The translations under genes and the position numbers were made by a program. Positions 555-19,201 of a DNA stretch of 64,000 nt are shown piece by piece. Source of the DNA: an uncultured virus (IMG/VR IMGVR_UViG_3300045005_000111) (taxonomy: Duplodnaviria; Heunggongvirae; Uroviricota; Caudoviricetes); IMG/VR virus record IMGVR_UViG_3300045005_000111; one strand, written 5' to 3'. The number at the start of each line of letters is the position of its first letter. The stretch's first letter is position 1. The notes under the pieces are model-generated. The model did no database searches. It was not told the origin of the DNA and saw only the letters and a list, made by a program, of their open reading frames with translations.

Positions 555-3275
555 TTAGCTTGCCAGACGCGGATTCGCTCTGGTCGTCCCACGGATTCTT
601 TCGAGCTGACTGTCCCACCACTCTACTGAGAATACCCACCCGGCAACCGGCGGGTCCATACGATCCTCCTGATCGAGCAAAACCCCAGCTTCGGTAAGGG
701 CGGTAGTGAGGTCTCGGTCGTCAGGCGCCGGTAGACCCTTGTCAAACAACGCTCGGTACAGACCGGATTTCGCCAGCCAAACTCGATCACCGTCGCGAAC
801 CACGGCCGGTGTTTTCCGTCGGTTTTCGTGCGTCCGCATTCGAGCACCTGTCAGTTGCCCTCCCTCGACCAGACGACCGACTACTTCGCCGAACGCTCGA
901 GCCACCTGATTCGGCCGGTCGGCGTAGGGGGCGGCGGCGTCGAGGATGACGCGGGCTTTGCGAAACACGGTCGCGTCCAGACCTTCGGCCTCCAACCATT
1001 CGCGCATACCTTGCAGAACCCGATCGGCCAGCGGACCTGACTCCGGCAGTCGCAGGTTGCGGTGCATAAGGAATCGGAAGAAGTTCGACAGCAGCTTGGC
1101 CGCCGGCCTTTGAAGCCTCATCGGATCACCGGCCGCCTCCGTCTCGACCCTGGTGTACTGTCCTGTTATTGCCCCAATTCGGCTCTCGAACCACGTTGCT
1201 TGCCAGACGCTGTTGCGGATGCCGGACGATCCGATCCACGCCCGGAAGGCCGTGAGGCTGTTGGCCTGGTTCGGCACCAACACCGGCCATCCGTGTTTGG
1301 CCTCCTCGGCAGCCAGGTCGAACACCCGTTTGGACGCGTTCGTGTGGCTGATAGGCGGCTGATAGGCGGCGCATCCGAGCCAGCAGGCCATACGGGCCGC
1401 CAGCTCGGCCGACTTTCCAACCAGGCCGATGGCCGATGTTTTCAGGCCGTATGCCGGGGCCAGCACGTCGGACGCGACGGCCGAAGCTATGGCCCACAGC
1501 ATCGCCGTTAACGGCTCGTCTTCGGTCAAGGCGTCCCAGTCGAGACGGGACAGCGGTTCTCCCGCGCAGCCTGTCGTAGGGGTCGTGTCGTCTCGTAGAG
1601 GGTACACCCCCTCGTCGACGAATTCGTCGGCGGTGACGACGAAGTTGGCGAACACGAACTTGTGGGGGTCCGAACACCAGCCGACTCGCTCTGGGCCTTT
1701 GACGTGACGGGGAGGATGGAGCTGCATGGCAATCTGCGTCACCTGCGTTCCGTATCCCTTGCTGTACACCACCACACCCTTGCCTGCGGCCAGCACTTTT
1801 GCCCTCATCCACGCGAGTGTCTTGTTTTCCACTTTGGCCTGCGGCTCAACGAACGGCACTTGTTCGTCGCGAATGCCGATCGACCCCCGGTAGTAGGTCT
1901 TGTCGCCGATGGTGATCACTTCGTCGATCCGCAGACGGGCGTTGACCATCTGCTCGCCGTTGCGGCGGATACCGTCCCGCCCCTCAGTGAACAAGTTCCC
2001 CCCGATCTGCACCGACAGTCCGTTAGTGTTCTCGACCCGCAAAAGGCGCGACTGCGTGGTAGCGAGTTCGCCACGACTCATGATTTCATTTCTCTCGTCA
2101 GCGTTCAGGTTCATGGCCGCCACCTCGGCTTGACCACTCGATTCCACCAGTGACTTCTGTCGTTCCTCGAGGGCCTCCATCCAGTCCAGCGACCGGGTAA
2201 TTGCCCGATCGACCCACATCTTTGACTCGTACCGGCTCAGGTGCTTGGCGATGGTGTCGTTGACACCGTCCTCCGCGCATACACGTCCGCCGTTCTCGCG
2301 AGCCAGTCGTATCAGCTCACTCGTCGATCGCATGCCCCAGAACACCGGCGTCGTCCCGGCCAGGCCGGCATACGTCTTCGTACTTCGGTCCTTGTGTTTC
2401 AGGCGTACGACTACCGGCAGCGGCTTGCCTCCGTCACGCAGATGCTTGTGCTGCAGCTTCAGAGCCTCGATCAAGTCGTCGGTGACGACCGCCGTCGCGG
2501 CGTCGGCGGCTACCGGCAGCATAGCGATTCCGAGCTCTTTCGACCTGCTGCCGGTGTTGCCTATGATCGGGCGGATGATGATGTCTTCGGGCCGGCCCTG
2601 TCGTCCGATGAAAACCAGTGACCGAATTCGGCCGGGAAGGTCCCAGGCAGGCACGACCAGAATGTCGGCCCAGCCGTTGCCGACGAACGACCGCAGCTTG
2701 CCGGTGTCCGTCGACCGGTTCATGGGCGGGTCGTCGGTCACCCGAAGGCCCAGCTCGGCGTCCCGACGATGACAGGCGCCGGTCAGCATGCCGACGTGCT
2801 TCTGCCACTGGTCGAGATTTACGTCCGGGTCGATGCCCAATTTTGATAGCATCGCTCGCAATTCGCCGCTCTCGGCGACCAGTTTGCTCTCTCGACACGT
2901 CTTCCAGAAGTTGTTGACTTTACGACGGTAACGTACGAATTGCAGCTCGTAACCCTCGATCGCCGAATCGAGGTGGAACGCGTCGAGGTGCAGCTTTCGG
3001 TCCCGGCACAGGCGGGTGGCCGCGTCCCTCACGTCGGCCTTCCACACTCCGGCCGCGAGCTCTATCATATCCCCCGCCCACCCGCACCCCCGGCAATGCG
3101 ACCATTGCCCGCTGTACACCGGGTCGTGGTAAACGGTAAACTGGTGTTCGGCGCCGCAGAACGGACATCTCGTCCGGCACGGCAGAGCGGCCGCCGGGAC
3201 GGGTATACCGAGCGCGGGCAGCACCTCTGCCCAAAACGCGAACCGGGAAACATTCTGGAGGCCGAACATGGTCAT
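555..3275 (-). CDS. Primase-like replication protein with N-terminal Zn finger
   Basis: 906-aa ORF; CPFCG...HCRGCGWAGDMIEL resembles the CHC2-type primase Zn-binding domain; later domains degenerate. Confidence 0.6.
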   Translation of the reverse strand: MTMFGLQNVSRFAFWAEVLPALGIPVPAAALPCRTRCPFCGAEHQFTVYHDPVYSGQWSHCRGCGWAGDMIELAAGVWKADVRDAATRLCRDRKLHLDAFHLDSAIEGYELQFVRYRRKVNNFWKTCRESKLVAESGELRAMLSKLGIDPDVNLDQWQKHVGMLTGACHRRDAELGLRVTDDPPMNRSTDTGKLRSFVGNGWADILVVPAWDLPGRIRSLVFIGRQGRPEDIIIRPIIGNTGSRSKELGIAMLPVAADAATAVVTDDLIEALKLQHKHLRDGGKPLPVVVRLKHKDRSTKTYAGLAGTTPVFWGMRSTSELIRLARENGGRVCAEDGVNDTIAKHLSRYESKMWVDRAITRSLDWMEALEERQKSLVESSGQAEVAAMNLNADERNEIMSRGELATTQSRLLRVENTNGLSVQIGGNLFTEGRDGIRRNGEQMVNARLRIDEVITIGDKTYYRGSIGIRDEQVPFVEPQAKVENKTLAWMRAKVLAAGKGVVVYSKGYGTQVTQIAMQLHPPRHVKGPERVGWCSDPHKFVFANFVVTADEFVDEGVYPLRDDTTPTTGCAGEPLSRLDWDALTEDEPLTAMLWAIASAVASDVLAPAYGLKTSAIGLVGKSAELAARMACWLGCAAYQPPISHTNASKRVFDLAAEEAKHGWPVLVPNQANSLTAFRAWIGSSGIRNSVWQATWFESRIGAITGQYTRVETEAAGDPMRLQRPAAKLLSNFFRFLMHRNLRLPESGPLADRVLQGMREWLEAEGLDATVFRKARVILDAAAPYADRPNQVARAFGEVVGRLVEGGQLTGARMRTHENRRKTPAVVRDGDRVWLAKSGLYRALFDKGLPAPDDRDLTTALTEAGVLLDQEDRMDPPVAGWVFSVEWWDSQLERIRGTTRANPRLAS

Positions 3276-4431
3276 GGATCAAACCACAGATCCCAACGGG
3301 CAGACCCTTCACAATCTGACCAAGCTCTACGATCCGCCCGAGTTTGTCAAGGCGGCGTCCCACGACGTCATCACCGGCAAGTCTCTGGGGGCGCTCCCGC
3401 CGACGGCTTACGGGGATCCGCGCACGTCGCAGTTCCCGATCGACACTCCGGCCAGCACCTTTGTGTCGATGATGTACTTCCTCGACGCTCGGCCTGGTCT
3501 CGGCAAGATGGCTGCCCTCGTCGAAGACCGGATCGACACGGCCGCTCGGTATTTCGGCATCGAGGGTCACCTGAAGACCCTCAAGGAGAAGCACGCCGCC
3601 AACGAGCGGACCGAGCTGTCCTCCATGCCGGACGACGACTTCGGGTCCGTCATTCAGTACGAAGGCGGCAGGGTCGAACGGCATCTGCCGCTACGCAACT
3701 CCCACGAGGTGAAAGCCGCGTTCGACTTCCTCGGGAAATGGGGCAAGGATTTCGTCTACTCCGACCGCCGGGCCATCGCCGAGCGGGTGCTCCGCAAGTC
3801 GGCTTCCCTGGGAGGGTTGTCGGACGCCGAGGAGCAGAAGCTCACCAAGATGGCCGGCTGGGGGGTGGGGGCCGCCGAGGGCGTTGCCGAAGCCTTGTAC
3901 AAGCGGGCCGCCGCCCTGCGAACCCTGCGCCGCAATGTCGATCTGCAGGAAGCCTTGGCGGAGACCGCCATAGCGTGCCTGAAGAATCCGCAGAACTTCC
4001 ATGTCCCGGCCAACATGCAGAAGATCGCCTCCTTCATCGACGCGATCGACCGTGAGGAGGGGCTCCTGGCGGCCAACCTCGGCGCCCCGGAGGATCTGTT
4101 CCAGTTCACCGTCAAGGAGGCGAGCGACTTCGCCGACGACCACGTTCAGCTCACCACCGGAACGGTGTACAAGAAGGCCGATCTTCGTCAGCTCGACCTG
4201 ACCGACATCCAAGACGTGATGGGCAAGCAGTTTGCCGAGCTGGTGTCGGCCGGCGGGGTGATGCTCGACATCGAGAAACTGGCCGAACAGCTCCACACGT
4301 TGCCACGGGCCGACGCCAAACTGTTCGACCAGCTTGCCGAAGCTGTAGCCCTGGTCCCGATGGGCAAGCAGGCGGCTGACGACGGCGCCGTCAACCGCTT
4401 CTACGACGCTCTGGCGTCGTTGCATCAGTGA
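3268..4431 (+). CDS. Hypothetical phage protein (387 aa), only clear plus-strand gene
   Basis: Natural amino-acid composition and GC3-rich codons; ends at convergent hairpin. Confidence 0.8.
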   Translation: MVMDQTTDPNGQTLHNLTKLYDPPEFVKAASHDVITGKSLGALPPTAYGDPRTSQFPIDTPASTFVSMMYFLDARPGLGKMAALVEDRIDTAARYFGIEGHLKTLKEKHAANERTELSSMPDDDFGSVIQYEGGRVERHLPLRNSHEVKAAFDFLGKWGKDFVYSDRRAIAERVLRKSASLGGLSDAEEQKLTKMAGWGVGAAEGVAEALYKRAAALRTLRRNVDLQEALAETAIACLKNPQNFHVPANMQKIASFIDAIDREEGLLAANLGAPEDLFQFTVKEASDFADDHVQLTTGTVYKKADLRQLDLTDIQDVMGKQFAELVSAGGVMLDIEKLAEQLHTLPRADAKLFDQLAEAVALVPMGKQAADDGAVNRFYDALASLHQ

Positions 4432-6351: not shown

Positions 6352-6702
6352 TCACAGGTCCAGGCCGCGCACCTGCACCTCGTCGTCCCGGGGCGCAGCA
6401 ACCCGGGCCGGTGCCGATCCGCCACCGCTGCCTGAGCCGCCGTTGGCCGAGTCGAGTACGGCCTGCGGGGCTCCGGCGTGCTTCGAGGCCGCGACCTCGG
6501 TGTAACCCTTGCCGGTCTTCTCGCTCATCATCTTCGCGGCGTAGTCCATCGCCGCACGCGGCGACGCGAACTGCTTTGCCTGGGTCTGACCGGCTGTGCC
6601 GATCCGGCCCCAGGTAGCGAAGAAGAACTTGCCCCGGACCTGGCAGGTCCAGAACTTCGAGTGGTTTCCGCTGACGTACTGAAAACAACGCTTCTCGATC
6701 AT
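6352..6702 (-). CDS. Stand-alone WGR-domain protein, C-terminus ...VRGLDL
   Basis: SKFWTCQV...TWGRIGTAGQ...EKTGKGY is the WGR signature; GGGAGG RBS before ATG 6702. Confidence 0.85.
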   Translation of the reverse strand: MIEKRCFQYVSGNHSKFWTCQVRGKFFFATWGRIGTAGQTQAKQFASPRAAMDYAAKMMSEKTGKGYTEVAASKHAGAPQAVLDSANGGSGSGGGSAPARVAAPRDDEVQVRGLDL

Positions 6703-7011
6703 GTCAAAGCCCTCCCGTTCGCCCGGCGGTGCGGACGGCAGCCAGCTCCAGTCCTCTGGTTGCAGCTCCATCTCACAGCCACCACAGTATAACCAACTGA
6801 AGTTGTCCGGATCGGTGGCCTCCGGGCGGACCCGAGCCCCTTGCCTCCGGCCCACCCAGACGCCCAGCTCCGAGTCAACTTTTCCTTCGATCCAGAACCC
6901 TTCTCCGCCGTAGGTGTAGTGTACCTCGACTCCGTAGAGTCGGTGATCCCGGTTGCAGTATCCGCAGTGGGCGCGCTTCATCAGGATGCCGTACGGTACC
7001 TGACCGTCCAT
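6703..7011 (-). CDS. Cys-motif hypothetical protein, reads in frame into the WGR gene as assembled
   Basis: AGGAGG RBS; CGYC and CGGC motifs; no stop before WGR start. Confidence 0.55.
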
Positions 7012-7023
7012 GACGACCTCCTG

Positions 7024-7554
7024 TCAGATGTGCCAGCGGCAATGGACTGCCTCGATCATGTACTGGTGAACGGTCGGGAGGATCTTGAAGCTCTTCTTTT
7101 GCGCTTCTTCGAGAGTCACCCACTTCACGGCGTGGTGGGCGTCCCCTTCGAGCTTCAGCTCCTCCTTGTTGGAGAAGAGGATGTACACGAACGCCAGGTG
7201 CTTGTGGCCCGGTAGCGGCGGGAAGGCGTGCATGTCCACGGCGAAGGGAGTGTACAAAACCCGGGTCTCGTGCTCCCCGTTGTCGACGACGGCCATCCGC
7301 AGCAGGCTGGTGACACGCTGCTGTTCGGTCGTCTGGAACACCGAGTAGTCTTGTAGGTGGCGCAGGCCGGTCTCTTCCTCGACCTCGCGCTTGAGAGCCT
7401 TGTCGGTGTCCTCTCCGATTTCGACGTGGCCGCCCGGAGGCAGCCAGCACCCGAGTTTCTTGTGGTCCACCATGGCGACGGCCGCCATCCGGGGGTGGAC
7501 GATGAAGGCGGAGACCACGAAGTCCAGTTCGGCGAACAGGTGCGGCACGGTCAT
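7024..7554 (-). CDS. Nudix hydrolase
   Basis: Nudix box GGHVEIGEDTDKALKREVEEETGL; GGAGGA RBS. Confidence 0.9.
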   Translation of the reverse strand: MTVPHLFAELDFVVSAFIVHPRMAAVAMVDHKKLGCWLPPGGHVEIGEDTDKALKREVEEETGLRHLQDYSVFQTTEQQRVTSLLRMAVVDNGEHETRVLYTPFAVDMHAFPPLPGHKHLAFVYILFSNKEELKLEGDAHHAVKWVTLEEAQKKSFKILPTVHQYMIEAVHCRWHI

Positions 7555-7829
7555 TCCTCCGGTGGCGAGAAAACTTGATCGTCGGGAGCCTGCATCAGCT
7601 CCCGCACGGTATCGAGGATCTCTTTTTCGGAGAACATAGTGGCGACGTCGTCCGGCAGCGAGCAGCACGCCGCGTAGTTTTCCAGGGCGGCGCCGGTACC
7701 GTCGATCTCTCCGATCAGGCCCTCGATGTCGTCTTCGGCCTCCCACTGTTCTATCTTGGCCCGGACCGCCTTGCGGAACAGCTCCACAATGCGGTCCTTG
7801 TGGGCCTCCAGCGCCTCACGATTCGTCAT
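7551..7829 (-). CDS. Hypothetical protein
   Basis: MTNREALEAHK...; overlapping start/stop with neighbours. Confidence 0.65.
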   Translation of the reverse strand: MTNREALEAHKDRIVELFRKAVRAKIEQWEAEDDIEGLIGEIDGTGAALENYAACCSLPDDVATMFSEKEILDTVRELMQAPDDQVFSPPEE

Positions 7830-8214
7830 CGTCTTCCTCCTCCTCGTCGTCGTCCCCTTCCTCATCTTCGTCGTCGTCGCGGTCGGGGAAGAGTTCGTCT
7901 GCCGCCGCAGTCAGGGTGTCCCAGTTGACGCCCAGCGTAGCGTCGTGGTTGCGATCAACGAAGTCGAGCACCTCGGCGGCCTGCGCGTCGTCCAAGCCCG
8001 GGCACACGCTCTGCACGTCGCCGACGCTCCACTTGAGCGCGATCGTGTACTCTTCGTCCCCGTCGACGGGTTCGATCTCGTCCAGCTTGGCCTTGATGGC
8101 CCGCTGGACTTTCATGATCTTGTTGGTCATGCCCTTCGGTATCCGCGAGTCGTCGCAGATGAGTTGGAGGTCGTTGAGTAGCTTGCGAATCTCCTCGATC
8201 TCTGTCGTTGTCAT
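7816..8214 (-). CDS. Hypothetical protein with acidic tail
   Basis: MTTTEIEEIRK...HDATLGVNWDT...DDDEDEEGDDDEEEEDDDES. Confidence 0.7.
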   Translation of the reverse strand: MTTTEIEEIRKLLNDLQLICDDSRIPKGMTNKIMKVQRAIKAKLDEIEPVDGDEEYTIALKWSVGDVQSVCPGLDDAQAAEVLDFVDRNHDATLGVNWDTLTAAADELFPDRDDDEDEEGDDDEEEEDDDES

Positions 8215-8225
8215 GGTGTCTCCGG

Positions 8226-8624
8226 TTAGGGCTTGATGATGTAGTAGGCGTCGTGGACTTCGGCCGACTCCGGCTCGAACCACACACCGAACACCAGCAC
8301 GTCGGGATTCATCGGCTTGCTGGTCTCGAGTACCACGATCCGCATCCACAGGTTGTTGAACACCTGCCAGTCGCTCTCGAACACCGCGTCAATATCGCCG
8401 TGGTCGTACAGCGCGTATGCCTGGTCGGCGGACTCTTTGCGTTCGGTGCCCATAGTTCCGGGCGCCACGACCTCACGGAACCTAGCCAAAGCCAGTAGTA
8501 GAGACGTCGCGATGTGGTTGCATTTGTCGACGTCCATCATCACCGCCGGCGGCACCACGGTCTGCATGTGCTGCCAGAATGTCTCCGACGCTTCTTTAAT
8601 CCCCGACAGGAGTTTCGGTTCCAT
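8226..8624 (-). CDS. Hypothetical protein
   Basis: ORF with GGAG RBS in co-oriented array. Confidence 0.6.
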   Translation of the reverse strand: MEPKLLSGIKEASETFWQHMQTVVPPAVMMDVDKCNHIATSLLLALARFREVVAPGTMGTERKESADQAYALYDHGDIDAVFESDWQVFNNLWMRIVVLETSKPMNPDVLVFGVWFEPESAEVHDAYYIIKP

Positions 8625-8844
8625 CGGTGTTCTCCGGATAGATTGGACAGCCGGCCGCTTTCCATCGTAGAACTTCGGGAAAGGTACTCATATCGACGGC
8701 CCATGTCGGCGGGTACAGACGGCGGGACAGCGTGCCGTCTGGCTCCAGCACCTGACAGCCTGGGTACAGTTGGGCCACTGCGAATGCGGCAAGACGGCCG
8801 ACCGACTCATGCACTACCTGACCATTGAATATGACCTTGTACAT
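8596..8844 (-). CDS. Hypothetical protein
   Basis: GGAGG RBS; 82 aa. Confidence 0.55.
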   Translation of the reverse strand: MYKVIFNGQVVHESVGRLAAFAVAQLYPGCQVLEPDGTLSRRLYPPTWAVDMSTFPEVLRWKAAGCPIYPENTDGTETPVGD

Positions 8845-8900
8845 AGCCGCCTCCAGTTAAGCCCTGTGAAACTGCGTGAAGCCGTCGAGGCAGTCGTCTT

Positions 8901-10592
8901 TCACACTGCCTCGCTGGTGGCGTCGGTGTAGTCGGGCACCAGCTCCGCCAGCGCTCGCTTCATCTTGGCCGTGCGGTCGGCGTCCTTGAGGGCGTTCTTC
9001 GACGCTTTCCCGGCCGCTTTCAGCACATTCGGATACACAATCAGACAGTGATTGACGAAATCCCCGAGGTGGTCGCGCGTCTTGTCGTGGAACGCTTCGT
9101 AGAACTCCGGCCCGTGGACGTGCGAGGAACTGTCGGGCTCGTGATGGCACAACTCGTGGATCAGAAGCCGACCGAGCTCGACGAATCCACGGACGTCGAA
9201 CTTCAGCGCCGACAAGAACGAGCGGTCGATGGCGATGTACGTCCGGCCGTCGGTCCATCCGTTGGCCCCGGTGCTCGACCCCACCATCAGGCGCCGACGG
9301 ATCTCACGCCAGTCGCGGTAACCGTCGGCCAGCTTGGAGACGGACCGCTCGGCGATGTCGATCCACACTTTCTCGTTCGCCTTCCACTCCTTCTGGTCGA
9401 CGATCTGGAACTCGTCGGTCATGCCGACAGACAGTTCCTTGAAGTCGACCACCGTCGGCTTCTCCCTGCGGCCGTACCGGTCGAGCATGTCCCACGCGTA
9501 TTCGACCACCTTCGCCAGGCTCTTGCCGAAACGCTCGAGCGTTTCGGTCGATAGGACGAATGCCACCTTCTGCTGATGCAGTCGATCGCCGACCTGCGAG
9601 CCCTGGTTGCAGCTCGTGATCTTCGCGTTGTAGCTGTGGATCGTATCGGCGATTTCGTAGGCGCTGAAGTGGCGTCCGGTGACGGACGTGAACAGCTTCA
9701 GGTTCTTGGCGTCCGGGGGCGCGTTACCCTGGACGACGAGGTCGGTCATCCGCTGGCGCTGACCGTCGTTGAGCTGCTTCTTCTTGGTCGCCTTCTCCTG
9801 GGCCTTCTTCTCGACGAACGGCTTGATCTTCCGCCAGACCTCGCAGTCCGACTGTACGTCGTTGCGAGCAAAATTCACCTTCAGCCGCTCCTTCGTGACG
9901 ATCAGACCGCCGGTACCGAACCGGTAGTTGCCGATGTCCATCGTGTGGACACCGAGGTTGTACACGGACAGCGAGCCCGAGTCGTTGAGGCGGATGTACG
10001 CCTCCGGTGTGACGTGGTCCCACTTCTCCTCGGCCGGGTCGATGTTGACCTTCTCCTTGTTGATGTACACCTCGACCTTCGGAGTGTACCGCGTCCACTT
10101 CTTGATCGTCCGTTCGGTCTCGGCCAAGTCGCCGAGGAACATCGGCTGGTACAGCTCGATCTCGATCCGGCACCCGTCGACCTTGAGTCCTTTCTCCTCG
10201 AGCTGGTAGTCGAGACCGTCTTTCTTGATGTCCACGTTCATCTCGAACGGCCCGGTCCGCCACCGGTTTTTGCCGTAGGCGAACATCTGGCCTCGCCCCA
10301 TGCGGAACGTGCCGTAGGTCTTGCCCTCCGAGTCCTCGTGCGGGGCGCCGAAAGTCTCGAAAAACGTCTCGATTTCCTTGCGCTTGGTAATCCCGCCGCC
10401 GTCGTCGGCGATCACTACACCGATCTCGGTGATATCGACCCGGCACACCTTCGCGCCGGCATCGACCGAGTTCATGACGCCCTCGAGGATGGCCTTCGAG
10501 AGCGACCCGGCCTGCCGCTGGATCACGTCCAGCAGCAGTTTCGGGTGCATGCCGAACCGGCGAGTCTCTTGATTTTTGCTTGTCGCGGGCAT
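8901..10592 (-). CDS. GHKL (HATPase_c/Hsp90/MORC-like) ATPase with C-terminal HExxH metallopeptidase-like motif
   Basis: ILEGVMNSVDAGA, IADDGGG, YGTFRMGRG Bergerat motifs; C-terminal LIHELCHH...HVHGPEFY. Confidence 0.8.
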   Translation of the reverse strand: MPATSKNQETRRFGMHPKLLLDVIQRQAGSLSKAILEGVMNSVDAGAKVCRVDITEIGVVIADDGGGITKRKEIETFFETFGAPHEDSEGKTYGTFRMGRGQMFAYGKNRWRTGPFEMNVDIKKDGLDYQLEEKGLKVDGCRIEIELYQPMFLGDLAETERTIKKWTRYTPKVEVYINKEKVNIDPAEEKWDHVTPEAYIRLNDSGSLSVYNLGVHTMDIGNYRFGTGGLIVTKERLKVNFARNDVQSDCEVWRKIKPFVEKKAQEKATKKKQLNDGQRQRMTDLVVQGNAPPDAKNLKLFTSVTGRHFSAYEIADTIHSYNAKITSCNQGSQVGDRLHQQKVAFVLSTETLERFGKSLAKVVEYAWDMLDRYGRREKPTVVDFKELSVGMTDEFQIVDQKEWKANEKVWIDIAERSVSKLADGYRDWREIRRRLMVGSSTGANGWTDGRTYIAIDRSFLSALKFDVRGFVELGRLLIHELCHHEPDSSSHVHGPEFYEAFHDKTRDHLGDFVNHCLIVYPNVLKAAGKASKNALKDADRTAKMKRALAELVPDYTDATSEAV

Positions 10593-10602
10593 GTGTTGTC
10601 CT

Positions 10603-10649
10603 GGTTAAAGGGGAAGGGAGGGCCGGCCGGGGTTTTGGCCCCGGCCGGC
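10603..10649 (-). terminator. GC hairpin followed by TCCCCTTTAACC
   Basis: GCCGGCCGGGG-CCAAAA-CCCCGGCCGGC on minus strand plus recurrent tail motif. Confidence 0.55.
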
Positions 10650-10674
10650 TGATAACGCCCGGGTCTGTTCTCGG

Positions 10675-11421
10675 TCACAACACCGTCAAGGACAGCCGAC
10701 CGCCTTCGCGCAGGCTCTGACTCTGGCGCTCGGGCTTCTGCACGTTTCTGGGACACAGCCCGCAGTCGGTGCAGGTAATGTGGCTGTCCTTGCCGTTCTC
10801 GTGCGGACAAACCGGCCGGCCTTTCACCGACCGGAGCACCGTCGAACGACTCGGGTAGTCGCGGAAAATGAGGTCGACGTAACGGTTGTCGATGGAGTCC
10901 GCGTCCTCATCGTCGACCGCCAGGTACGCGATCCTCACGTTCTGCGGGATGACCGCCGGATACCCAGTGGACTTGTCGACCGAGAACCACACCGCCACGT
11001 TGGGCAGGAGGGCCATCTCGGCGAACAGCTCGGTGTACCCGGGTTCTCGCCAGGAACGGGAGTAGAAGTAGAACCGAGTGTCGGGGCACTCGCGCATGGC
11101 ACGCAGCCAAGCCCGGGCGTATTTCTTGGAGAAGAAGTCCCCGGAGACGTGAATACGCAGGACCTTGATCTTGCGGGCCTTGATTTGACCGATCAACCAC
11201 TCCGCGAACTCCGGCTTTCGGGCGAGTTCGAGGTTGCCCTCGTACTTCTTCTGGAACCCCTTCATCCGGGACCGCATCGCGTAGCAACGGATCGGGCCAC
11301 CCGGATAGAGCTCGGCCGTGCAGACCTCGCTCCGTCCGGGGCATGTAGTGATTGCCGGCAACGACCAGGTTTTGACGCCATTACCCAGTTTCGAGTTGCC
11401 GCTTCTAATTCCGAGAACCAT
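10675..11421 (-). CDS. Phage gp88-like protein (radical-SAM-like Cys cluster)
   Basis: GNSKLG..WSLPAITTCPG..C..CYA, RIHVSGDFFS, FYFYSRSW motifs. Confidence 0.75.
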   Translation of the reverse strand: MVLGIRSGNSKLGNGVKTWSLPAITTCPGRSEVCTAELYPGGPIRCYAMRSRMKGFQKKYEGNLELARKPEFAEWLIGQIKARKIKVLRIHVSGDFFSKKYARAWLRAMRECPDTRFYFYSRSWREPGYTELFAEMALLPNVAVWFSVDKSTGYPAVIPQNVRIAYLAVDDEDADSIDNRYVDLIFRDYPSRSTVLRSVKGRPVCPHENGKDSHITCTDCGLCPRNVQKPERQSQSLREGGRLSLTVL

Positions 11422-11490
11422 GACCGCCTCTTGGTGTAGTACCGTCGCCCCACGGGCCGTACACACCTCCGCCATGGCGGTGTAGATTGA

Positions 11491-11973
11491 TCACTGAGCC
11501 GCCGGCGAGTCACCGAGCGATGTGCTCGACTCGGGTAATTCCTTCGGCGGCGTGTAGATGATCGTCACGCGCGTGACGATCTTCACGTCGTGGCTGCTGC
11601 GTACTCGATCGCACATCATTCGTACCGCCGCCCGCCGCGCGTCGTCGATGGTGATGGAGTCGACCACTTTACGGTTGCGACTGCCCGAATTCTTCTTGGC
11701 CCATGCCACCAGCTTGTCGTCGGCGACCATCGCCGGCTTCAGCTTGCTGACCAGAGCGTCGAGGTCGCACGTTCCGCCCAGCTCGATGATCGCGGCCATG
11801 ACGCCGGCGGACGTCATTCCGGTGTCCGTCGACCCTGGTCGATTCTGGAGCTTCGGCTTGCTCGCTCGGCCGAGGCGCATCTTGGCAGGCGGCTTCAGCT
11901 TGTAGAACATCTGCCCGCCCTCTTCCTTCGTCTCGGCGATAGACGCGGGAAGATGGGCCAGCACGTCCTGCAC
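11491..11973 (-). CDS. Hypothetical protein (start uncertain)
   Basis: 160-aa ORF with coding-like composition but no clear RBS. Confidence 0.45.
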   Translation of the reverse strand: MQDVLAHLPASIAETKEEGGQMFYKLKPPAKMRLGRASKPKLQNRPGSTDTGMTSAGVMAAIIELGGTCDLDALVSKLKPAMVADDKLVAWAKKNSGSRNRKVVDSITIDDARRAAVRMMCDRVRSSHDVKIVTRVTIIYTPPKELPESSTSLGDSPAAQ

Positions 11974-12130
11974 CGGGGTCGTATGCCCGCTCGCCGCCCT
12001 TCAGGTGCTTCTTAACCCCGGTGCGGCAGTTCATCACCCGTGTCTCGCCGGTCGTCCGCTTGACGAATTCGACCGTCAAGAAAGTGCCGTTACTGTGTTC
12101 GATGATGGTTGCCGCTTCTTCCGTTGTCAT
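11974..12130 (-). pseudogene. N-terminal part of a small phage SH3/Sm-like beta-barrel protein, frame becomes non-coding-like after AYDP
   Basis: FLTVEFVKRTTGETRVMNCRTGVKKHLKGGERAYDP with AGGAG RBS; downstream in-frame sequence looks like a shadow frame. Confidence 0.45.
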
Positions 12131-12139
12131 TCGTTCGCT

Positions 12140-12175
12140 CCTAGTAGGTGTTGTGTTGTCGTTACACCTACTAGG
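12140..12175. repeat. Perfect 12-bp inverted repeat overlapping an RBS
   Basis: CCTAGTAGGTGT-N12-ACACCTACTAGG. Confidence 0.8.
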
Positions 12176-12187
12176 CATTGGGCAGGG

Positions 12188-12406
12188 TCATTCGTCGTAG
12201 TCGATGCTCTTGACGAACGGGATGCCCAACTCGGTCGCCAGTTCTTGCCCCAGCGCGAGCAGCGCATCCCATTCGCTCCGGTCGTCGTCTTCCATGTCGC
12301 ACGATGCCAGAACGAATTCCTTGCCGCTCGCGGTGATGAGGAACGCACCGGCGAGCAGTTGGTACGAATCCTCATCGTCCAGTTCTTTCACTTCAACCCG
12401 TGCCAT
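12188..12406 (-). CDS. Small acidic hypothetical protein
   Basis: AGGAG RBS, 72 aa. Confidence 0.65.
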   Translation of the reverse strand: MARVEVKELDDEDSYQLLAGAFLITASGKEFVLASCDMEDDDRSEWDALLALGQELATELGIPFVKSIDYDE

Positions 12407-12683
12407 TCGTTGCTCCTAGACGGGCGGCCTGTAGCACATCCGCCAGCGGCCGTCCTTCGACGGCCCCGACGTTCTTGTACCGGTAGTAGCGGACCGCAAG
12501 ATCGTTGGGCAGGTCCGAGCCCAGGGTGGCGGCCATCCCGGCGGCCGTCCACCACTTCCCGTCGAGGAACTTGGCGTACAGGTGCTCTCGACGCACCGGG
12601 TTCCTCTGCTTGTCGGGCTTCTTCTCGGATTCTTCGTCTTCCTGTGCAGGCTTGGTGCCGAGAAGGGTAACTTCCTGGCTCAT
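12393..12683 (-). CDS. Hypothetical protein
   Basis: GGAGGAG RBS, 96 aa. Confidence 0.6.
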   Translation of the reverse strand: MSQEVTLLGTKPAQEDEESEKKPDKQRNPVRREHLYAKFLDGKWWTAAGMAATLGSDLPNDLAVRYYRYKNVGAVEGRPLADVLQAARLGATNGTG

Positions 12684-12687
12684 GCAC

Positions 12688-13738
12688 TCACTCCTCCACA
12701 GAGCGGAGCGCCTTCGAGAGGCGGTTCCGCAGGTTGGTCGTGGTCTTGATGAACGTCTCGCGCTTCTCGCCCTTGAACATGTCCTTGAGGTCCGCCTTGT
12801 CCAGCGTCTCAGTGGTCTTGTAGCAGCGAGTCAGCTCGCCGAGGATCACGGTCTCGGCCGTCGGCTTCGGACGGACACCGTTACCCTCGGCCTTCTGTTT
12901 CTTCTTGGCCTCGGCGTTGGCCTTCAACTCGCCCTCGATCTTGTGGAGCTCGGCCCGCTGGGTGGTCTCGTCGAACGGCTTCACCTCACGGAGCCGACGG
13001 AACACCTGCTCGAGCTGCTCCTTCGTCGGCTTGTCGGACCGGGTCATCAGCCGTGCCACGTCCAGCACGATCAACTGGGACACCGACCGGCCGTAGAACG
13101 CCTGGTTAAGGCTTTCCGTGACACCGTCGGGCAGCTTCTCGCCGCCCGGCACGAACGTGTCCGGCTGGCTCATGAGCGTACGGAACTCGCTGGCGGAGAC
13201 TTTCCGCTTCAGCTTCTTGTGGTCCAACGACAGGTTGGCGGCCATCGTGATGAGATCCGCCGGCTCGCCGTTGTCGTGCAGCCGGCGGATCTCCTCGACC
13301 GCCCGCTCCAGTCGCTCCTCGGTCGACAGGCCCGAGCCCTCGAACGCGTTGTCGATCACGGCCAACTGGAACCGGGTGGACCGGCCGACTCCGAGGACGA
13401 CGTAGCCCGTCCACGGTCTTGACACCAGCTTCCTTGCACCCCCCAGATCGGTGGAATCCGCCGAGGCACTCCAACTTCTTGTTGGTCTCGCTCAGCAGTA
13501 GGCCGGGCAGCTCGAGGCCAGTCGCCGCGATCTTGAAGGCGATGTCCGAGGCGCGGGTTTCGTCGACTTTCGCCGCCAGACGCGACGGGTTGCGGTCGAA
13601 GTAGATGTCGGCCAGCTTGATGCCGGGCCGCCAGTCCCAGTCGACCTCGAGGTGGTTCAGCTTGGCCTCGAGGTTGAGATTCCGGGTCCAGACGACCTGG
13701 CCGGGCTTCAGGGAGGTGGCGGTGGTGTTGGTGCTCAT
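12688..13738 (-). CDS. ParB/Srx-like N-terminal domain protein, split by a 1-nt frameshift near 13405
   Basis: MSTNTT...LECLGGFHRSGGCKEAGVKTVDG continues naturally as YVVLGVG... in the adjacent frame (GAC GGG C TAC; one extra G). Confidence 0.6.
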
Positions 13739-14044
13739 GCGAGCATTCTCCAGGTTGGAAGTAGCACAGCCGGACACGAGTCCGACATGGTCTCGGACCC
13801 GGACCCGCAACGGCAGCGTCTCCACGATCCTCGGTGTAGGAGGGACGTCCTGCTTCCACTCCCCTTGTGTCTGCACGTTGACCGGCGTACCTTCGAGCTC
13901 CCTGATGTACGCGTACACGCGGTTCCAAGTCGCCGACCACTTGTCGAACAGTATCTGGTTTTTGACCCGAAGGTCTTCGGCCAGTCGCGCTCGCTCGTCG
14001 TCGATCTTCTTTCTCGCTTCAATGACCTTGTTCAACATGGACAT
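13735..14044 (-). CDS. Hypothetical protein (3' end uncertain)
   Basis: GAGG RBS, MSMLNKVIEARKKIDDERARL...; no in-frame stop before ParB-like start, but an out-of-frame TGA overlaps that ATG. Confidence 0.5.
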
Positions 14045-14052
14045 TTCGTGCC

Positions 14053-14592
14053 TCACAGATCAAGCCCCCGTTGCTGTACTTCGTACTCCGTCAAGTCGAC
14101 GTAGTTCTTGAGATACTTCGCTGTTTCCCTGATGACCGCCGGGCTGTGCCACAGAGCGTCGTCGTGTAGACTGCGCCAGCACGCGTCGTCTTCCAGGTAT
14201 GTACGCTTAACCTTGTCGTCGGCCCAGGTTCGCCAGTGGATGATCCACCCCATCTTGAAGTACTCGGTGCCGTCGCTATGCACCACGAACATCTCGATGG
14301 GGAACACCCGGTCGTCTCCGAGCGGCTCGGCCGTTAGGGACTCGATGCGGCGGACCGACAAACTACGATGGATCGTGTGGCCGGCGTCGTTCTTGCGGGG
14401 CTCCAGCTTGAGACCGTCCAGATCCTTCAGTTGGAGGGCAACGGTTTCGTAGGTGTTGCGGAACGCTTGCCACCGCTTGATCTTCTTGAGCTGCGACTCC
14501 TCGCGACTCCTCTGGTGCTCGCGCTTCTGCTCGAGCGCCAGTTTCAGGATTTCGTCCCTGAGCGTGGTGATCGTAACAGATGGGTTGCTCAC
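14053..14592 (-). CDS. Hypothetical protein, C-terminus ...QQRGLDL
   Basis: GTG start overlapping upstream TGA; coding-like composition. Confidence 0.7.
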   Translation of the reverse strand: MSNPSVTITTLRDEILKLALEQKREHQRSREESQLKKIKRWQAFRNTYETVALQLKDLDGLKLEPRKNDAGHTIHRSLSVRRIESLTAEPLGDDRVFPIEMFVVHSDGTEYFKMGWIIHWRTWADDKVKRTYLEDDACWRSLHDDALWHSPAVIRETAKYLKNYVDLTEYEVQQRGLDL

Positions 14593-14858
14593 AGGTCGAT
14601 TCCGGGGCGGTTGCCTTCGGGCACGACAGCCGTGTCCTCGGCCCCCTTCGAGGACACCGCCCTCACCGCGATCACAACGCGCCGGTTGGCCCGCTTGGAG
14701 CGGACGAGAGTGGTTTTGCCGCCGTCCTCCTTCGGGTGGGCCTTGATCGCCCGTACCCCGTCCAGGCGGACGGGAATCGCGGTGCCGTCCTCGAGGAGGA
14801 CGTACACCTCGTCGTTGACGTACTTGGCGAGCTTCTTCGACAGGGTCTTCGCTTTCAT
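14589..14858 (-). CDS. Small basic protein, C-terminus ...NRPGIDL
   Basis: ATGA coupling, GGAG RBS. Confidence 0.65.
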   Translation of the reverse strand: MKAKTLSKKLAKYVNDEVYVLLEDGTAIPVRLDGVRAIKAHPKEDGGKTTLVRSKRANRRVVIAVRAVSSKGAEDTAVVPEGNRPGIDL

Positions 14859-15127
14859 GCCACCGGCTCCGGAAGGTTGTGGTCGATGAGCCACTGGACC
14901 TCGGCGGCCAGGGCATCAACTCGCAGTTTGAACGGTCCGAGCTTCGGCCCACGGCACGGCGCCATGTCCGCGTACCAGACCGTCTCTCCGTCGACCGTCT
15001 CCGGCTCGACGTGTGAGGCCCGCTTGATCGTCGACGAGCCCAGCTCCAAAAGCGGCGCCAGCTCGTCGTAGTAAAGGAAGTGGATCATCCCGTCGGGGGT
15101 GATGTCGATGGTGAAGGTCTGGCTCAT
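14855..15127 (-). CDS. Conserved small protein ('RASHVEP...W.AD..P..GP.LGPF' family) of AAA/DUF1257/DUF2997 clusters
   Basis: Motifs IKRASHVEP and WYADMAPCRGPKLGPF; AGGAG RBS. Confidence 0.75.
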   Translation of the reverse strand: MSQTFTIDITPDGMIHFLYYDELAPLLELGSSTIKRASHVEPETVDGETVWYADMAPCRGPKLGPFKLRVDALAAEVQWLIDHNLPEPVA

Positions 15128-15200
15128 CGCAGACTCCTGAAAACGGAAGGGCCGCCCAACTCGGGCGGCCCTCCCTGGCCCCACCTCTCCGCCGCCTCGA

Positions 15201-15398
15201 TCAGCTTTGGCCGATCTTCACCGTCTGCTGTGTCGGCGCGTTGTATTCGGACTTGCGCTCCGTGTCCACCACCTTGCCGAGCGCCTGCTCGATGTCCTTC
15301 GTCAGCAGCGAGCAGCCGCTGCCCTTCATGCCGTCGACCTCGATGGTCACGTTGCCCTTCTCGTCGATCTCGATCGTAATGATCGGATTCTGAGTCAT
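15201..15398 (-). CDS. DUF2997-family protein
   Basis: ITIEIDEKGNVTIEVDGMKGSGCSLLTKDIEQALG...SEY; AAAGGAG RBS. Confidence 0.8.
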   Translation of the reverse strand: MTQNPIITIEIDEKGNVTIEVDGMKGSGCSLLTKDIEQALGKVVDTERKSEYNAPTQQTVKIGQS

Positions 15399-15827
15399 GT
15401 CGGCTCCTTTCCGCCAGAGGCGGATTTTGATGGTTTCCCTTTCGGCGATCACCTTGCGATCGAGGCCGGCGGCCTCGGCGAATTGTCGAACCGTCTCCAT
15501 GACGATGGCAGCTTTGAAGTGCCTGCCTTCGTAGCCGATGCGGGACGTGAGACCCCAGCCCTCACGGAAGTCGTCCCACACGAGAGTGTACGGCCCCTGA
15601 CCGAAAACGCCCACCACGGCCGGCGGGCGGTTGAACCCCAGATTGACATCGGCCGGTAGCCGGAAGACGCCGATCTGGGGGCCGGCCGGCGTCGGATCCG
15701 CCTCGCCGTCCCTCAGGAACGGCGCGTAGTCCCAGCGGCGTTCGCCGGTGGTGTCTAGCACCATACCACAGGAGAGTGCCGCTTCCGTGGCGATGCTCAG
15801 GGTTTCTGCGGTTGTCGTGTGAATCAT
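15399..15827 (-). CDS. Divergent DUF1257-like protein (in frame with DUF2997 as assembled)
   Basis: VVGVF..GPYTLVWDDF...GL..RIG pattern recalls DUF1257/Ycf35. Confidence 0.5.
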
Positions 15828-15843
15828 AGCCGTCCCGTTCTGG

Positions 15844-16224
15844 TCATTTCTGTGCCTGGATGCGGATGCGTCCTTCGGCAGTGGTTTCCTGAGAAAGGAT
15901 CCGCAACCCCTTGGTCTTGACCTTCTGCACGACGGCTTCGGCAGCGTAGAGCTGCGACAGCTTGTCGAGGTGCTTCTGGTCGCCCCAGTTGCCGCCGTAG
16001 TTGTCGAACTCCACGGTCCCGTCGGTCTTGATGATGACGGGGTAGTTCCAGCTCTTGAACTTCACAACGGCAGCACCCTTCGTGGTGCCCTGGTAGAGCC
16101 GGCCCTCGATCTCCTGACCCTTCTCGGCGACCTTGATCTCCGCGACCTCGTCGAACTTTTCGCACGCCTTCTTGAGCGCTTCGATGTCGTAGATCTCGGT
16201 CTTGATCGTCGTCTTGTGGCTCAT
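15844..16224 (-). CDS. DUF1257 (Ycf35-like) protein
   Basis: MSHKTTIKTEIYDIEALKKAC...WNYPV...FDNYGGNWG...LSQLYAAE. Confidence 0.8.
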   Translation of the reverse strand: MSHKTTIKTEIYDIEALKKACEKFDEVAEIKVAEKGQEIEGRLYQGTTKGAAVVKFKSWNYPVIIKTDGTVEFDNYGGNWGDQKHLDKLSQLYAAEAVVQKVKTKGLRILSQETTAEGRIRIQAQK

Positions 16225-16274
16225 CGCCGCCTCGTTTGGAATGTCGACCTGAGGCCGACTCGTAATGGAATCGA

Positions 16275-16295
16275 CCGGAGCCACAGTGGCTCCGG
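16275..16295. repeat. Intergenic palindrome/hairpin
   Basis: CCGGAGCCAC-A-GTGGCTCCGG. Confidence 0.7.
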
Positions 16296-16309
16296 CCAGG
16301 AGGGTTTCG

Positions 16310-17479
16310 TCACAGGTCGAGGCCGCGCATGAACTGCCCGTAGGCTTCGATGTGCGTGTCCTCGGAGGTAAGGGTCTCCCGGGCGTCCCGCAGGAACTCC
16401 GCGACGGACCGGGCGGCCTCGCGGTTCGCCTGTCCGTTGACGGACTGCGGGTTCACCGCGTTGATCCGGTGGGCGATATGCGACAGCCGGCGCTGCAGGT
16501 CCGGCGTGGTCAGGAACGAGAAGCCCTGCAACTTCGTATACGCCGCCTGGATGTTGGCGATCGTAGCAGGCAGCACGCGGCTGCCACGGCTCAGGATCCC
16601 CTCCATGTTCGCCAGGGATGCGGCGAACTCGTTGAGGGGCTCCTGAATCATCGTACGCACCGCATCGGCGATGGCCCGGCTCGTCGCCTCCCGAGCCTCG
16701 GTTACCCATGCAGCCGACGCGTTCTCGCCCAACAGGGCCGGAGGCGTGTTGGCGACTTCGGTGACCGCCGTGATGAGGGCGGGCATCAGTCGCTGGACCG
16801 CCTCGAAGTCCGCCGTCGACACCGACGGGTTTCGCAGCAGCTCGTTCACCCGCTCTCGAAGGCGGTTGTCGAAGTCGGCCGGGATCCCGCTGCCCAGCGG
16901 CATCAGGATCATGTCGATGGTGTGCCTGGCGACGAACGTGTCGGCGTCCACCAGCCACTTCCGCATCGACAGGTAGAAGGACGTCTGCTCGCGCCGGAGC
17001 TTGTCGACGTGGTCCTCCCACTTCGGCCGGTACTCCTCCGCCTTCTCCCGGTACTCTTGGCGGACGGCGCGGACCGACCCGAACAGCTCGGACGCCGGGT
17101 TGCGGCCACCGGCACCTGTCACCGGGACCAGGTAGGCGCCACCCGGGAAGGGCGTGCCGAACAGGCTCGGCTGCCGCCGGGCCTTATTGGCGATGTAGCT
17201 CATCGCCCGGTTGATGTCCGGCGGAACCAGTCGCCCGGTGGCTCCGGACAGGAGCTCATCGGGGACGGTCTCCCCCTCGACCCTGACCTCGGCCTTCTTG
17301 AGCTTCCGCTCGTAACCCACACCGTGGGCCGAGATCTTCACGGCGACGCAGTTGCGGGCGATCCGCCGCAGGACGCGGGCGGAGTCGATCCGTTCGAGCT
17401 GACTGACGTCGAGTTCGGGCGTTTCAACCGTGACGGTCTGATCGTCGATTCCGGTCCCCACCTCGGCGGTAGTGGACAT
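16310..17479 (-). CDS. Helical protein, DUF3150-like, C-terminus ...FMRGLDL
   Basis: 389 aa; ARR....GTPFPGGAYLVP motif; position beside Ycf46-like AAA gene. Confidence 0.55.
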   Translation of the reverse strand: MSTTAEVGTGIDDQTVTVETPELDVSQLERIDSARVLRRIARNCVAVKISAHGVGYERKLKKAEVRVEGETVPDELLSGATGRLVPPDINRAMSYIANKARRQPSLFGTPFPGGAYLVPVTGAGGRNPASELFGSVRAVRQEYREKAEEYRPKWEDHVDKLRREQTSFYLSMRKWLVDADTFVARHTIDMILMPLGSGIPADFDNRLRERVNELLRNPSVSTADFEAVQRLMPALITAVTEVANTPPALLGENASAAWVTEAREATSRAIADAVRTMIQEPLNEFAASLANMEGILSRGSRVLPATIANIQAAYTKLQGFSFLTTPDLQRRLSHIAHRINAVNPQSVNGQANREAARSVAEFLRDARETLTSEDTHIEAYGQFMRGLDL

Positions 17480-17543
17480 GTCGTTTCTCCAGAATTATTT
17501 ACTCGCTGGCTCTTCAGCGTAACTGGTTGAACGGTCTTATGGA

Positions 17544-17569
17544 AGGGCCGGGGCGTACGCCCCGGCCCG
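17544..17569. terminator. GC hairpin downstream of AAA gene
   Basis: GGGCCGGGGC-GTAC-GCCCCGGCCC. Confidence 0.55.
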
Positions 17570-17584
17570 CTGACTGGCCGTTGG

Positions 17585-19201
17585 TCAGTTGTTCTTCGGG
17601 TCGAACGGCAGGTCGAGGTCCAGGGCGCGGCCGCCGCCGTCCTTCGATCCTTTCACCCGGCGGTTGGAAGAGACGCTGCGGGCACGGTCCTTCCCGAACT
17701 TCCGGATCTCCTCGATGTTCTCGGGATCGACCTTCACGACCGGAACGATGTCCTCGAGGGCCGCGACGAGCTGAGTTGCCGTCGGGATGCCACGGCTGGT
17801 CTGATCGGCGCTGTACGCAGTGAATCGGGCCGCCGATATCGCCTGCTCGATCTCCGCTCCGACGTAGTCGCGGCTCTTCGAGACGAGCTGCTTCCAGTCG
17901 TCTTTCCCGTACACCGACGGGTCGATGCGGCGCTTCCGCATGTGGATCTCGAAGATCGCCTTCCGCTCTGCGTCGGTAGGCGTATCGACGAAGAAAATTT
18001 CGTCGAATCGACCCTTGCGGAGCAGCTCCGGCGGCATGCCCTTGATGCGGTTCATGGTGAGCACCACGAACGTCTTGTTTTTCTTCGACGACAGCCAGGT
18101 CAGGAGCTGCCCGAAGACGCGCTTGGTCACGCCGCTGTCGCCGGTGCCGTCGATGGCCCCGCCGAGCACCTTGTCGGCTTCGTCGATGAGCAGCACACAG
18201 CCGCCCAGCGCGTCCGCCGTCTGGATGGTCTCGCGGGTTCGCCGCTCGGACTCGCCCACGAGGCTGTTGAACACGGCGTCGAAGTTGAACGTCACCCGGG
18301 GCAGACGCAGCTCACGGGCGATGACGTCGGCCGCGATCGACTTGCCGGTGCCCGGCACGCCGATCATCACGATGCCCTTCGGGAAGTCCAGCCCCAACGA
18401 TTCGGCCTCGGGCTCGTACGCCACCTTCCGCTCGTTCAGCCACGTCTTGAGCTCGTCGTACCCGCCCAGCTCGTTGCCGCCGATGATGTCCTTCTTCGGG
18501 ACGTAGCTGAGCACCTCGGACTTCTGGAGCAGGCGGCCCTTCTCCATCTCGATGGTGTCGATGATCTCCGGCGTGATTCCGCCGTGGCGGACGATGCATT
18601 CGGCCAGCGCGTCCGAGGCGTCCACGGTCGTCAGGCCCGACAGGGCCGTCGCGATCTGGTACCGGAGCGAGTCCGAGCACTGCTTCTTGGTGGGGTCGGA
18701 GATCGACATCCGCACCCCCTCGAAGATCCCCATCAGGTGCTGGTGGCTCGGCAGCGGGTAGATGAGCTGCTTCATGTACGGCAGCAGGTCCTGGTTCATC
18801 GCCGTGCTCGGCGTGAGCAGGATGACCGGACGGCGGTTCTTCTTCGTGTTGAGCGCCTGCCGCTGGATCAGCCCCTTGATGGCGGAGACGGGGCTTGGAT
18901 TCTGCATCAGCTCGTAGTGCGGGTCCCGCATCATGATGATGGTGTTCTGGTCGAACTGCGCGGGAACCGGGATCGACTCGATCGCCTCGGTCAGGTTGAT
19001 GTGCTTGTCGCTGCCGTTCCATCCGTGGACGCAGTCCCAGACCGCAAAGCTGTACCCGAGCTCCTTCGCGATCTTTTTGAGGGACTCCTCGGCCGCTCCG
19101 TTCTGCCCGCCGACGACCAGTTGGACACACTGTACACCGGCGCGGATGTAAAGGGTGATCTGGTCTTCGACTTCCTTGATGTCCTTGAAATTGTTCGTCA
19201 T
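17585..19201 (-). CDS. Ycf46-like AAA+ ATPase
   Basis: Walker A GVPGTGKS, Walker B LLIDEADK, SRH PPELLRKGRFDEIFFVD; degenerate N-terminal AAA domain. Confidence 0.9.
   Translation of the reverse strand: MTNNFKDIKEVEDQITLYIRAGVQCVQLVVGGQNGAAEESLKKIAKELGYSFAVWDCVHGWNGSDKHINLTEAIESIPVPAQFDQNTIIMMRDPHYELMQNPSPVSAIKGLIQRQALNTKKNRRPVILLTPSTAMNQDLLPYMKQLIYPLPSHQHLMGIFEGVRMSISDPTKKQCSDSLRYQIATALSGLTTVDASDALAECIVRHGGITPEIIDTIEMEKGRLLQKSEVLSYVPKKDIIGGNELGGYDELKTWLNERKVAYEPEAESLGLDFPKGIVMIGVPGTGKSIAADVIARELRLPRVTFNFDAVFNSLVGESERRTRETIQTADALGGCVLLIDEADKVLGGAIDGTGDSGVTKRVFGQLLTWLSSKKNKTFVVLTMNRIKGMPPELLRKGRFDEIFFVDTPTDAERKAIFEIHMRKRRIDPSVYGKDDWKQLVSKSRDYVGAEIEQAISAARFTAYSADQTSRGIPTATQLVAALEDIVPVVKVDPENIEEIRKFGKDRARSVSSNRRVKGSKDGGGRALDLDLPFDPKNN

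Follow-up and report, generated by a model that had tools for sequence, protein, structure and literature searches.

An RGLDL-type C-terminal tail conserved in a phage-borne Ycf46-like AAA+ module and carried by unrelated proteins

Recruitment of AAA+ ATPases by short linear motifs is already known. The C-terminal tail reported here, RGLDL and its variants, is undescribed in the literature searched (titles and abstract openings, mostly without subscription papers, and no supplements). It is carried by proteins of the uncultured virus IMGVR_UViG_3300045005_000111 and is tied to a module that contains an AAA+ ATPase. The window is the whole stretch of DNA that was analyzed, 64,000 nucleotides, and positions refer to it. 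We call the ATPase Ycf46-like and take DUF1257 to be Ycf35; both names follow source labels and not a family model.

Ycf46 and DUF1257 are found in cyanobacteria and plastids, in many other bacteria, and in phages. No mechanism for either turned up in the literature searched. Ycf46 is described as a KaiC-interacting AAA ATPase from a stress-induced operon, and the accessible part of that source contained no tail or docking function for it (PMC13683863). The Ycf46/Ycf35/DUF2997 set of cyanobacteria and plastids resembles the window module in having the same Pfam families side by side. DUF1257 and DUF2997 score above cut-off here, and the window ATPase matches in two tiers, the first degenerate and the second intact. 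Unlike the Ycf46 set, the window module is phage-borne, includes DUF3150 and RASHVEP, which are rare in the bacterial loci, and has its tail on unrelated proteins.

The module also recalls p97/Cdc48/VAT in its two-tier AAA+ fold and in an Arg-containing motif shared by unrelated proteins. According to the accessible part of PMC5389986, unrelated p97 cofactors use such a linear motif (VIM, VBM) for one site, with consensus Rx2h3AAx2Rh or EhRRRRLxhh, which the window tail does not match. VIM and VBM are helices that dock on the N domain, whereas the window ATPase has no N domain and itself bears the motif. It further differs from p97/Cdc48 in its degenerate first tier and in the lack of a pore aromatic.

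The HbYX/GQYL tails of proteasome activators are C-terminal docking tails with a penultimate Tyr, and they are shared by an ATPase and unrelated proteins. The window tags instead have a penultimate Asp and need not be flush with the C terminus; no proteasome was identified. The ssrA/ClpX and Tsp signals are free-carboxylate degrons, in which the motif is flush with the C terminus. QL(S/D)LF of the beta clamp and LDFL of T4 gp55 and gp33 are C-terminal clamp motifs with a perhaps looser consensus, and like the window tail they are short, hydrophobic, and carried by unrelated proteins that share one hub (PMC9690074, accessible part). The window tail differs in being anchored by Arg; a conserved Gln ahead of the first hydrophobe and a Phe following the second are both missing, and no clamp gene was found in the window. 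Cyclin RxL and PP1 RVxF motifs set a basic residue and spaced hydrophobes into a hydrophobic groove (PMC8786283, accessible part). This likeness is a chemical analogy only; the receptors are unrelated, and the motifs are non-terminal and eukaryotic.

Gene calling on the window gave 68 genes. PHROG matches to tail sheath, baseplate wedge, protease, and sigma-like genes place the window in a large tailed phage. Three minus-strand genes encode proteins that end in RGLDL directly before the stop. The WGR-domain protein (6352 to 6702; tag, 6352 to 6369) ends EVQVRGLDL, an orphan of 179 amino acids (aa) (14053 to 14592; tag, 14053 to 14070) ends EVQQRGLDL, and a 389-aa DUF3150 protein (16310 to 17479; tag with stop, 16310 to 16327) ends GQFMRGLDL. 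An 89-aa orphan on the same strand (14589 to 14858; variant tag, 14589 to 14609) ends NRPGIDL, which has one residue inserted relative to RGLDL. The first-pass annotation had reported the same terminal peptide on all four proteins; this holds for the three exact copies and not for RPGIDL. The penultimate Asp is present in all four flush copies. The 538-aa ATPase (17585 to 19201, minus strand) ends GGGRALDLDLPFDPKNN, with RALDL nine residues before the C terminus.

Across the 64 kb, the pattern R-x-hydrophobic-x-hydrophobic within 3 residues of the stop occurred only in the three exact RGLDL copies. No internal RGLDL was present among 18,819 residues. As had been claimed, none of the structural genes among the 68 calls matches. 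By composition, the chance of three flush RGLDL ends is about 1e-12. A test on random sets of 68 internal 5-mers is fairer; a 5-mer recurred three times in 0 of 20,000 simulations, so the recurrence of the tag in the window is not due to chance. The tagged proteins, putatively early by their position, had been described as having no other similarity. BLASTP among the five proteins agreed, with no match below E 0.04, and the match between the WGR protein and the 179-aa orphan was the tail itself, where they share 8 of the last 9 residues (EVQxRGLDL). An embedded ribosome-binding site was considered as the cause of the motif and ruled out; there is no common purine-rich core, and about 85 non-coding bases follow the DUF3150 gene. 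A GP88-family protein (10675 to 11475, minus strand) ends GRLSLTVL, and its orthologues end GRLSLPVI and GRLSLTVL. This second conserved Arg-led tail was left out of the tag count because it is in another register.

Both the ATPase family and the DUF3150 family conserve the RGLDL-type peptide as their tail. The window DUF3150 protein matches its Pfam family with 44.6 bits (cut-off, 24.9), and its tail is kept in relatives. R-x-h-x-h (h = L, I, V, M, or F) was flush in 42 of 115 DUF3150 relatives (control mean, 0.49; maximum, 3) and lay within 12 residues of the end in 78 of the 115 (control, 6.9). R-x-h-[DES]-h was found near the end of 43 of the 80 closest ATPases (control, 0.85) and of 48 of all 120 ATPases. 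The tail motif of the window ATPase is RALDLDL (residues 525 to 531; 17609 to 17629), and its Arg, R525, is invariant across the alignment of 29 ATPases. The commonest tail residues are R-[GSA]-[ILV]-D-[LVI]. The ATPase and DUF3150 had been counted among the tagged clients; the motif is these families' own tail, and the other proteins borrow it. Of the DUF3150 proteins that have it, 42 of 78 end flush with it, versus 6 of 60 among the ATPases that have it. A free carboxyl end therefore appears dispensable, and of the docking or degron codes that had been suggested, a degron needing a free carboxylate appears unlikely from these tails. In what follows, L numbers denote ATPase loci and G numbers denote the relative genomes used for comparison. 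One ATPase clade without detected partner genes (L039, L040, L049, L062, and L069) has acidic tails, such as EDDL and EEEL.

The borrowed tags are also kept in close relatives. The WGR protein (Pfam WGR, 65.3 bits) has a G/S/A linker before its tag. Eight of its nine homologues end in RGLDL, including one identical to the window protein, and one homologue with about 50% identity has lost the linker and retained the RGLDL end. The 179-aa orphan has 6 homologues (60 to 80% identity), every one of which ends RG[ML]DL, and the residues ahead of the tag vary. The tail of the 89-aa orphan is an appended one; structure matches span residues 1 to 73 only, and 2 of 2 orthologues end RPGIDI. Close homologues in these families thus conserve the tag. 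Distant WGR proteins lack it; 0 of 11 at viral loci have RGLDL, and their examined flanks contain no module gene, which counts in favor of the docking motif proposed below. The WGR and 179-aa homologues, together with the DUF3150 and ATPase families, bear out the proposed selection on the peptide. Eight related records searched contained no WGR match. Atlas searches gave no family for the 179-aa or the 89-aa orphan, and single-protein scans of viral contigs gave no match. Upstream of 6702 the WGR frame stays open as far as 7011 (219 aa), and position 6702 is spanned gap-free by contigs from two runs. The Met at 6702 is itself the start in 7 of 9 homologues. Within 6352 to 7011 (minus strand), the WGR gene follows a 103-aa Cys-containing segment, in frame and with no stop; this segment has no Pfam family.

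The close relative L081 contains two further tagged proteins (ARGLDL and QRPIDV). The first (15313 to 15894 of L081) has a counterpart in L082 that is alike over the first ~100 residues and has no tail. This pair represents a gain or loss of the tail. The ARGLDL protein is related to the 179-aa orphan as a weak paralogue (25%, E 4e-5) and therefore does not count as a separate gain.

R-x-h-x-h within 3 residues of the stop was also counted in relative genomes. It exceeded the control maxima (5, 3, and 9) in G001 (6/57), G005 (5/50), and G004 (11/200), so the predicted spread to unrelated proteins was seen in some relatives. Proteins other than ATPase and DUF3150 were then drawn from 112 sets. 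Where the set had a tailed DUF3150, 35 of 1,099 matched (control, 16.1; maximum, 27); where it had none, 24 of 1,138 matched (control, 20.3). The other tags resembled the DUF3150 tail of their own set, with a mean score of 4.83 versus -1.04 for shuffled assignments (p 0.00015; 12 sets, L081 excluded as a near-duplicate). The tag sits on a flexible end and is added to varying unrelated proteins in the genome's own spelling. The expected tie to the AAA/DUF3150/DUF1257/DUF2997 module is supported by this spelling match and by the co-occurrence of partner genes. The code may not be specific to phages, since bacterial copies of the module have a similar tail. In three bacterial loci with DUF1257/DUF2997 adjacent, the ATPase ends GFR[NDG]LEL and a neighbor ends GFRGLEFD. 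In these modules (L219, L229, and L261) the neighbor is on the opposite strand, has 157 to 168 aa, and ends like the ATPase.

The module occupies 14855 to 19201 (minus strand) and contains the ATPase, DUF3150, DUF1257, a fusion protein with DUF2997 as its C-terminal part, and a RASHVEP protein. The ATPase matches Pfam AAA and phrog_8638 (E 6e-110). Its model (predicted local distance difference test [pLDDT], 87.8) has two AAA tiers, the first beginning at residue 8 or earlier, and a tail that is disordered from residue 514. The model and Foldseek (p97/Cdc48/VAT, E ~1e-21) give the fold of p97 D1-D2 without the N domain. The CDC48 model TIGR01243 gave 103.8 bits, below its cut-off of 802.65. 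D1 has no Walker motifs, and D2 is intact (GVPGTGKS, IDEADK, and R395/R398). Pore loop 1 of such AAA+ ATPases usually has an aromatic residue; the D2 pore loop here is SLVG, with no aromatic residue, and its L314 is invariant (29/29).

The 126-aa DUF1257 protein (15844 to 16224) is above the Pfam cut-off, co-occurs with tailed ATPases, and is the leading candidate receptor. Its model (pLDDT, 94.5) gave a best structural Z of 6.5 to a TBP-like fold (root mean square deviation, 2.9; 78 aligned) and 5.7 to 5.8 to adaptin appendage domains, all below Z 8, a level that the tool calls common, and therefore a lead only. Foldseek with this model gave nothing at E 0.001. DUF2997 (15201 to 15398) is fused in frame after a domain with no Pfam family, in a gene at 15201 to 15827. 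The fusion also occurs in L081, L082, L092, and L109; L004 and L084 have separate genes. The domain ahead of DUF2997 (15399 to 15827) has a weak likeness to DUF1257, over the C-terminal half of the latter (hhalign E 0.006, probability 6%). If DUF2997 is naturally fused to a DUF1257-like domain, this would hint that the two folds pair. The RASHVEP protein (90 aa; 14855 to 15127) has no tag, and its family is present in 45 of 160 ATPase loci.

The RGLDL-type tail is a selected, transferable terminal motif tied to this module, and it is very probably an interaction motif. We propose that R-x-hydrophobic-[D/E]-hydrophobic serves the five-gene AAA+ module (ATPase, DUF3150, DUF1257, DUF2997, and RASHVEP) as a short linear docking motif. 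The motif would bind as an extended strand in a single groove. The groove would most likely lie on the DUF1257/DUF2997 pair, which would replace the N domain missing from the p97-like ATPase. The ATPase ring would hold this adaptor through its own tails. Tagged DUF3150, WGR, and orphan proteins would occupy the free adaptor sites and would be delivered for ATP-driven remodeling. Given such an interaction motif, we put a receptor on DUF1257/DUF2997 at about an even chance. The full chain, from strand docking through the adaptor to remodeling of the tagged proteins, could equally be right or wrong.

Partner genes bear on which protein reads the tag. From 238 ATPase loci, 142 had more than 2.5 kb on both sides, and 86 were left at 70% identity. 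Where DUF1257, DUF2997, or a small HSHDGG gene lay within 6 kb, 28 of 57 ATPases had the tail motif, versus 1 of 29 where none did. With tails of at least 10 residues only, the counts were 28 of 55 versus 1 of 14. The single partnerless ATPase with the motif has DUF2997 elsewhere in the same genome. The 80 bacterial and archaeal ATPase loci contain DUF1257 in 33, DUF2997 in 32, DUF3150 in 2, and RASHVEP in 1. DUF3150 is thus an unlikely receptor, since bacterial tail-bearing modules mostly lack it (2/80). HSHDGG-type modules have neither DUF2997 nor RASHVEP. With these three set aside, DUF1257 or a positional stand-in, or the ATPase itself, remains as the reader. A compact module is found at L045, L050, L055, L059, L061, L072, L074, L078, and L079, where the ATPase mostly ends R-x-L-D-[LI]. 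It also has a ~255-aa gene (where inspected) and a ~113-aa protein with an invariant HSHD-x-G-x-T-W. No Pfam DUF1257 was found in the four compact-module genomes searched.

The ATPase could itself read the tag, through its degenerate first tier or its pore. The tagged proteins would then be direct substrates, and its own tail would be a self-regulating decoy. No other gene is present in every tail-bearing module once those without Pfam DUF1257 are counted, and a first tier that has lost its Walker motifs could be a binding platform. Among partnerless ATPases, however, 15 of 29 lack a tail altogether and the motif is present in 1 of 29, so the tail tracks the partner genes and not the ATPase. 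Nor is the tail folded back in the monomer model, although an inter-subunit site would escape such a model. We consider an ATPase reader unlikely, at perhaps a quarter of the weight. Co-folding of ATPase 1-512, DUF1257, DUF2997, and DUF3150 358-389 scored 0.00 in both runs and weighs neither way.

Several results weigh against the adaptor reading. The strict motif is missing from 29 of the 57 partnered ATPases. On the tree, only 2 independent, well-supported pairs underlie the partner-tail correlation, which is not significant once kinship is allowed for. Pfam DUF1257 was present in 0 of 5 complete phages with R-x-L-D-L ATPase tails, and the small HSHDGG protein of these phages is of doubtful kinship to DUF1257 (hhalign probability, 11%). 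The SLVG pore loop, without the usual aromatic, weakens the unfoldase step. The genome-wide excess predicted for relatives is absent from the near-complete G002 (5/164), G003 (3/172), and G007 (2/163) and from G006 (4/86; control maximum, 5). G001, G004, and G005 have two tagged families in common, and the sets are related, so the p of 0.00015 overstates independence. Some tagged proteins are mutually homologous, and tag gains are therefore fewer than the counts imply. Bacterial and archaeal ATPase loci (n = 80) have no overall excess of matching neighbors (15/754; control, 15.75).

The tag might instead address a host factor, such as a sliding clamp, a protease, or a protease adaptor, with the module proteins merely among its users. 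The clamp motifs QL(S/D)LF and LDFL on unrelated proteins contain L-D (PMC9690074, accessible part), and three copies of the tag have a free terminal Leu. The constant residue, however, is an Arg two places ahead of the first hydrophobe, without the Gln and final Phe of those motifs, and few ATPases have the motif flush. The spelling also differs among phages and follows that of DUF3150, as would suit a receptor that is phage-encoded and co-evolves with the tag. A host factor is accordingly improbable.

The different codons of the tag copies had been taken as a sign of peptide selection. This is right for the 179-aa copy, which differs from the DUF3150 tag at 4 of 5 codons and is unlike it after the stop beyond the first base. 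It is not right for the WGR and DUF3150 genes, whose ends have 20 of 21 bases the same. With codon bias as the only cause, 4 of 5 codons would be shared in ~0.24 of cases (best of three pairs), so this identity neither proves nor rules out DNA copying. Neutral carry-over, in which copied or paralogous 3' ends are functionless on third-party proteins, would suit that identity, the tagged weak paralogue that the 179-aa orphan has in L081, and the lack of extra tags in G002 and G003, both close relatives, but it is very improbable given the divergent 179-aa copy and a tail that outlasts 50 to 60% protein identity, linker deletion, and upstream indels. DNA copying may explain the origin of the tag and not its retention.

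The sequencing runs that contain the stretch are labeled as lake water, and no RNA dataset was among the runs listed. No tRNA was found in the window. Relatives with the same gene order are records of 190 to 192 kb, estimated to be 91 to 93% complete. The sole plus-strand gene called (3268 to 4431; 387 aa) has no family, and an opposite-strand gene of similar size lies near the module in L001, L002, and L006. Long Asp/Glu-rich tracts are encoded at 288 to 542 and 7816 to 7870 (minus strand), and the tract at 7820 to 7870 differs between contigs of two runs. The gene at 8901 to 10592 (minus strand) encodes an N-terminal HSP90/MutL-type ATPase domain and possibly a HEXXH metallopeptidase segment at about residues 476 to 516 (weak). 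A 346-aa gene of L082 (15708 to 16748, no Pfam family) corresponds to two window frames, 12688 to 13425 and 13106 to 14056 (minus strand), that are offset near 13410. The first part of that gene is also in frame, with no intervening stop, with an upstream orphan that starts at 14056. No contig among those listed bridges 13390 to 13412, and the offset may be a sequence error or a real variant.

The tail shared by the ATPase, its partner, and the borrowing proteins provides a five-residue handle for binding tests and names candidate clients. It also predicts where the missing substrate-binding domain of a p97-like motor is located. If it works as a transferable tag, it would also be a small orthogonal targeting tool. 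More tentatively, and with somewhat less than even confidence, the tail could be a portable address code, in which a separate DUF1257/DUF2997 adaptor of an undescribed prokaryotic p97-like segregase reads a five-residue C-terminal tag in a lineage-private spelling. If this is true, a phage could recruit any protein to the machine, such as a WGR DNA-break sensor or the orphans, by adding the tag, and this code would also account for ycf46 and ycf35, orphan genes of plastids and cyanobacteria.

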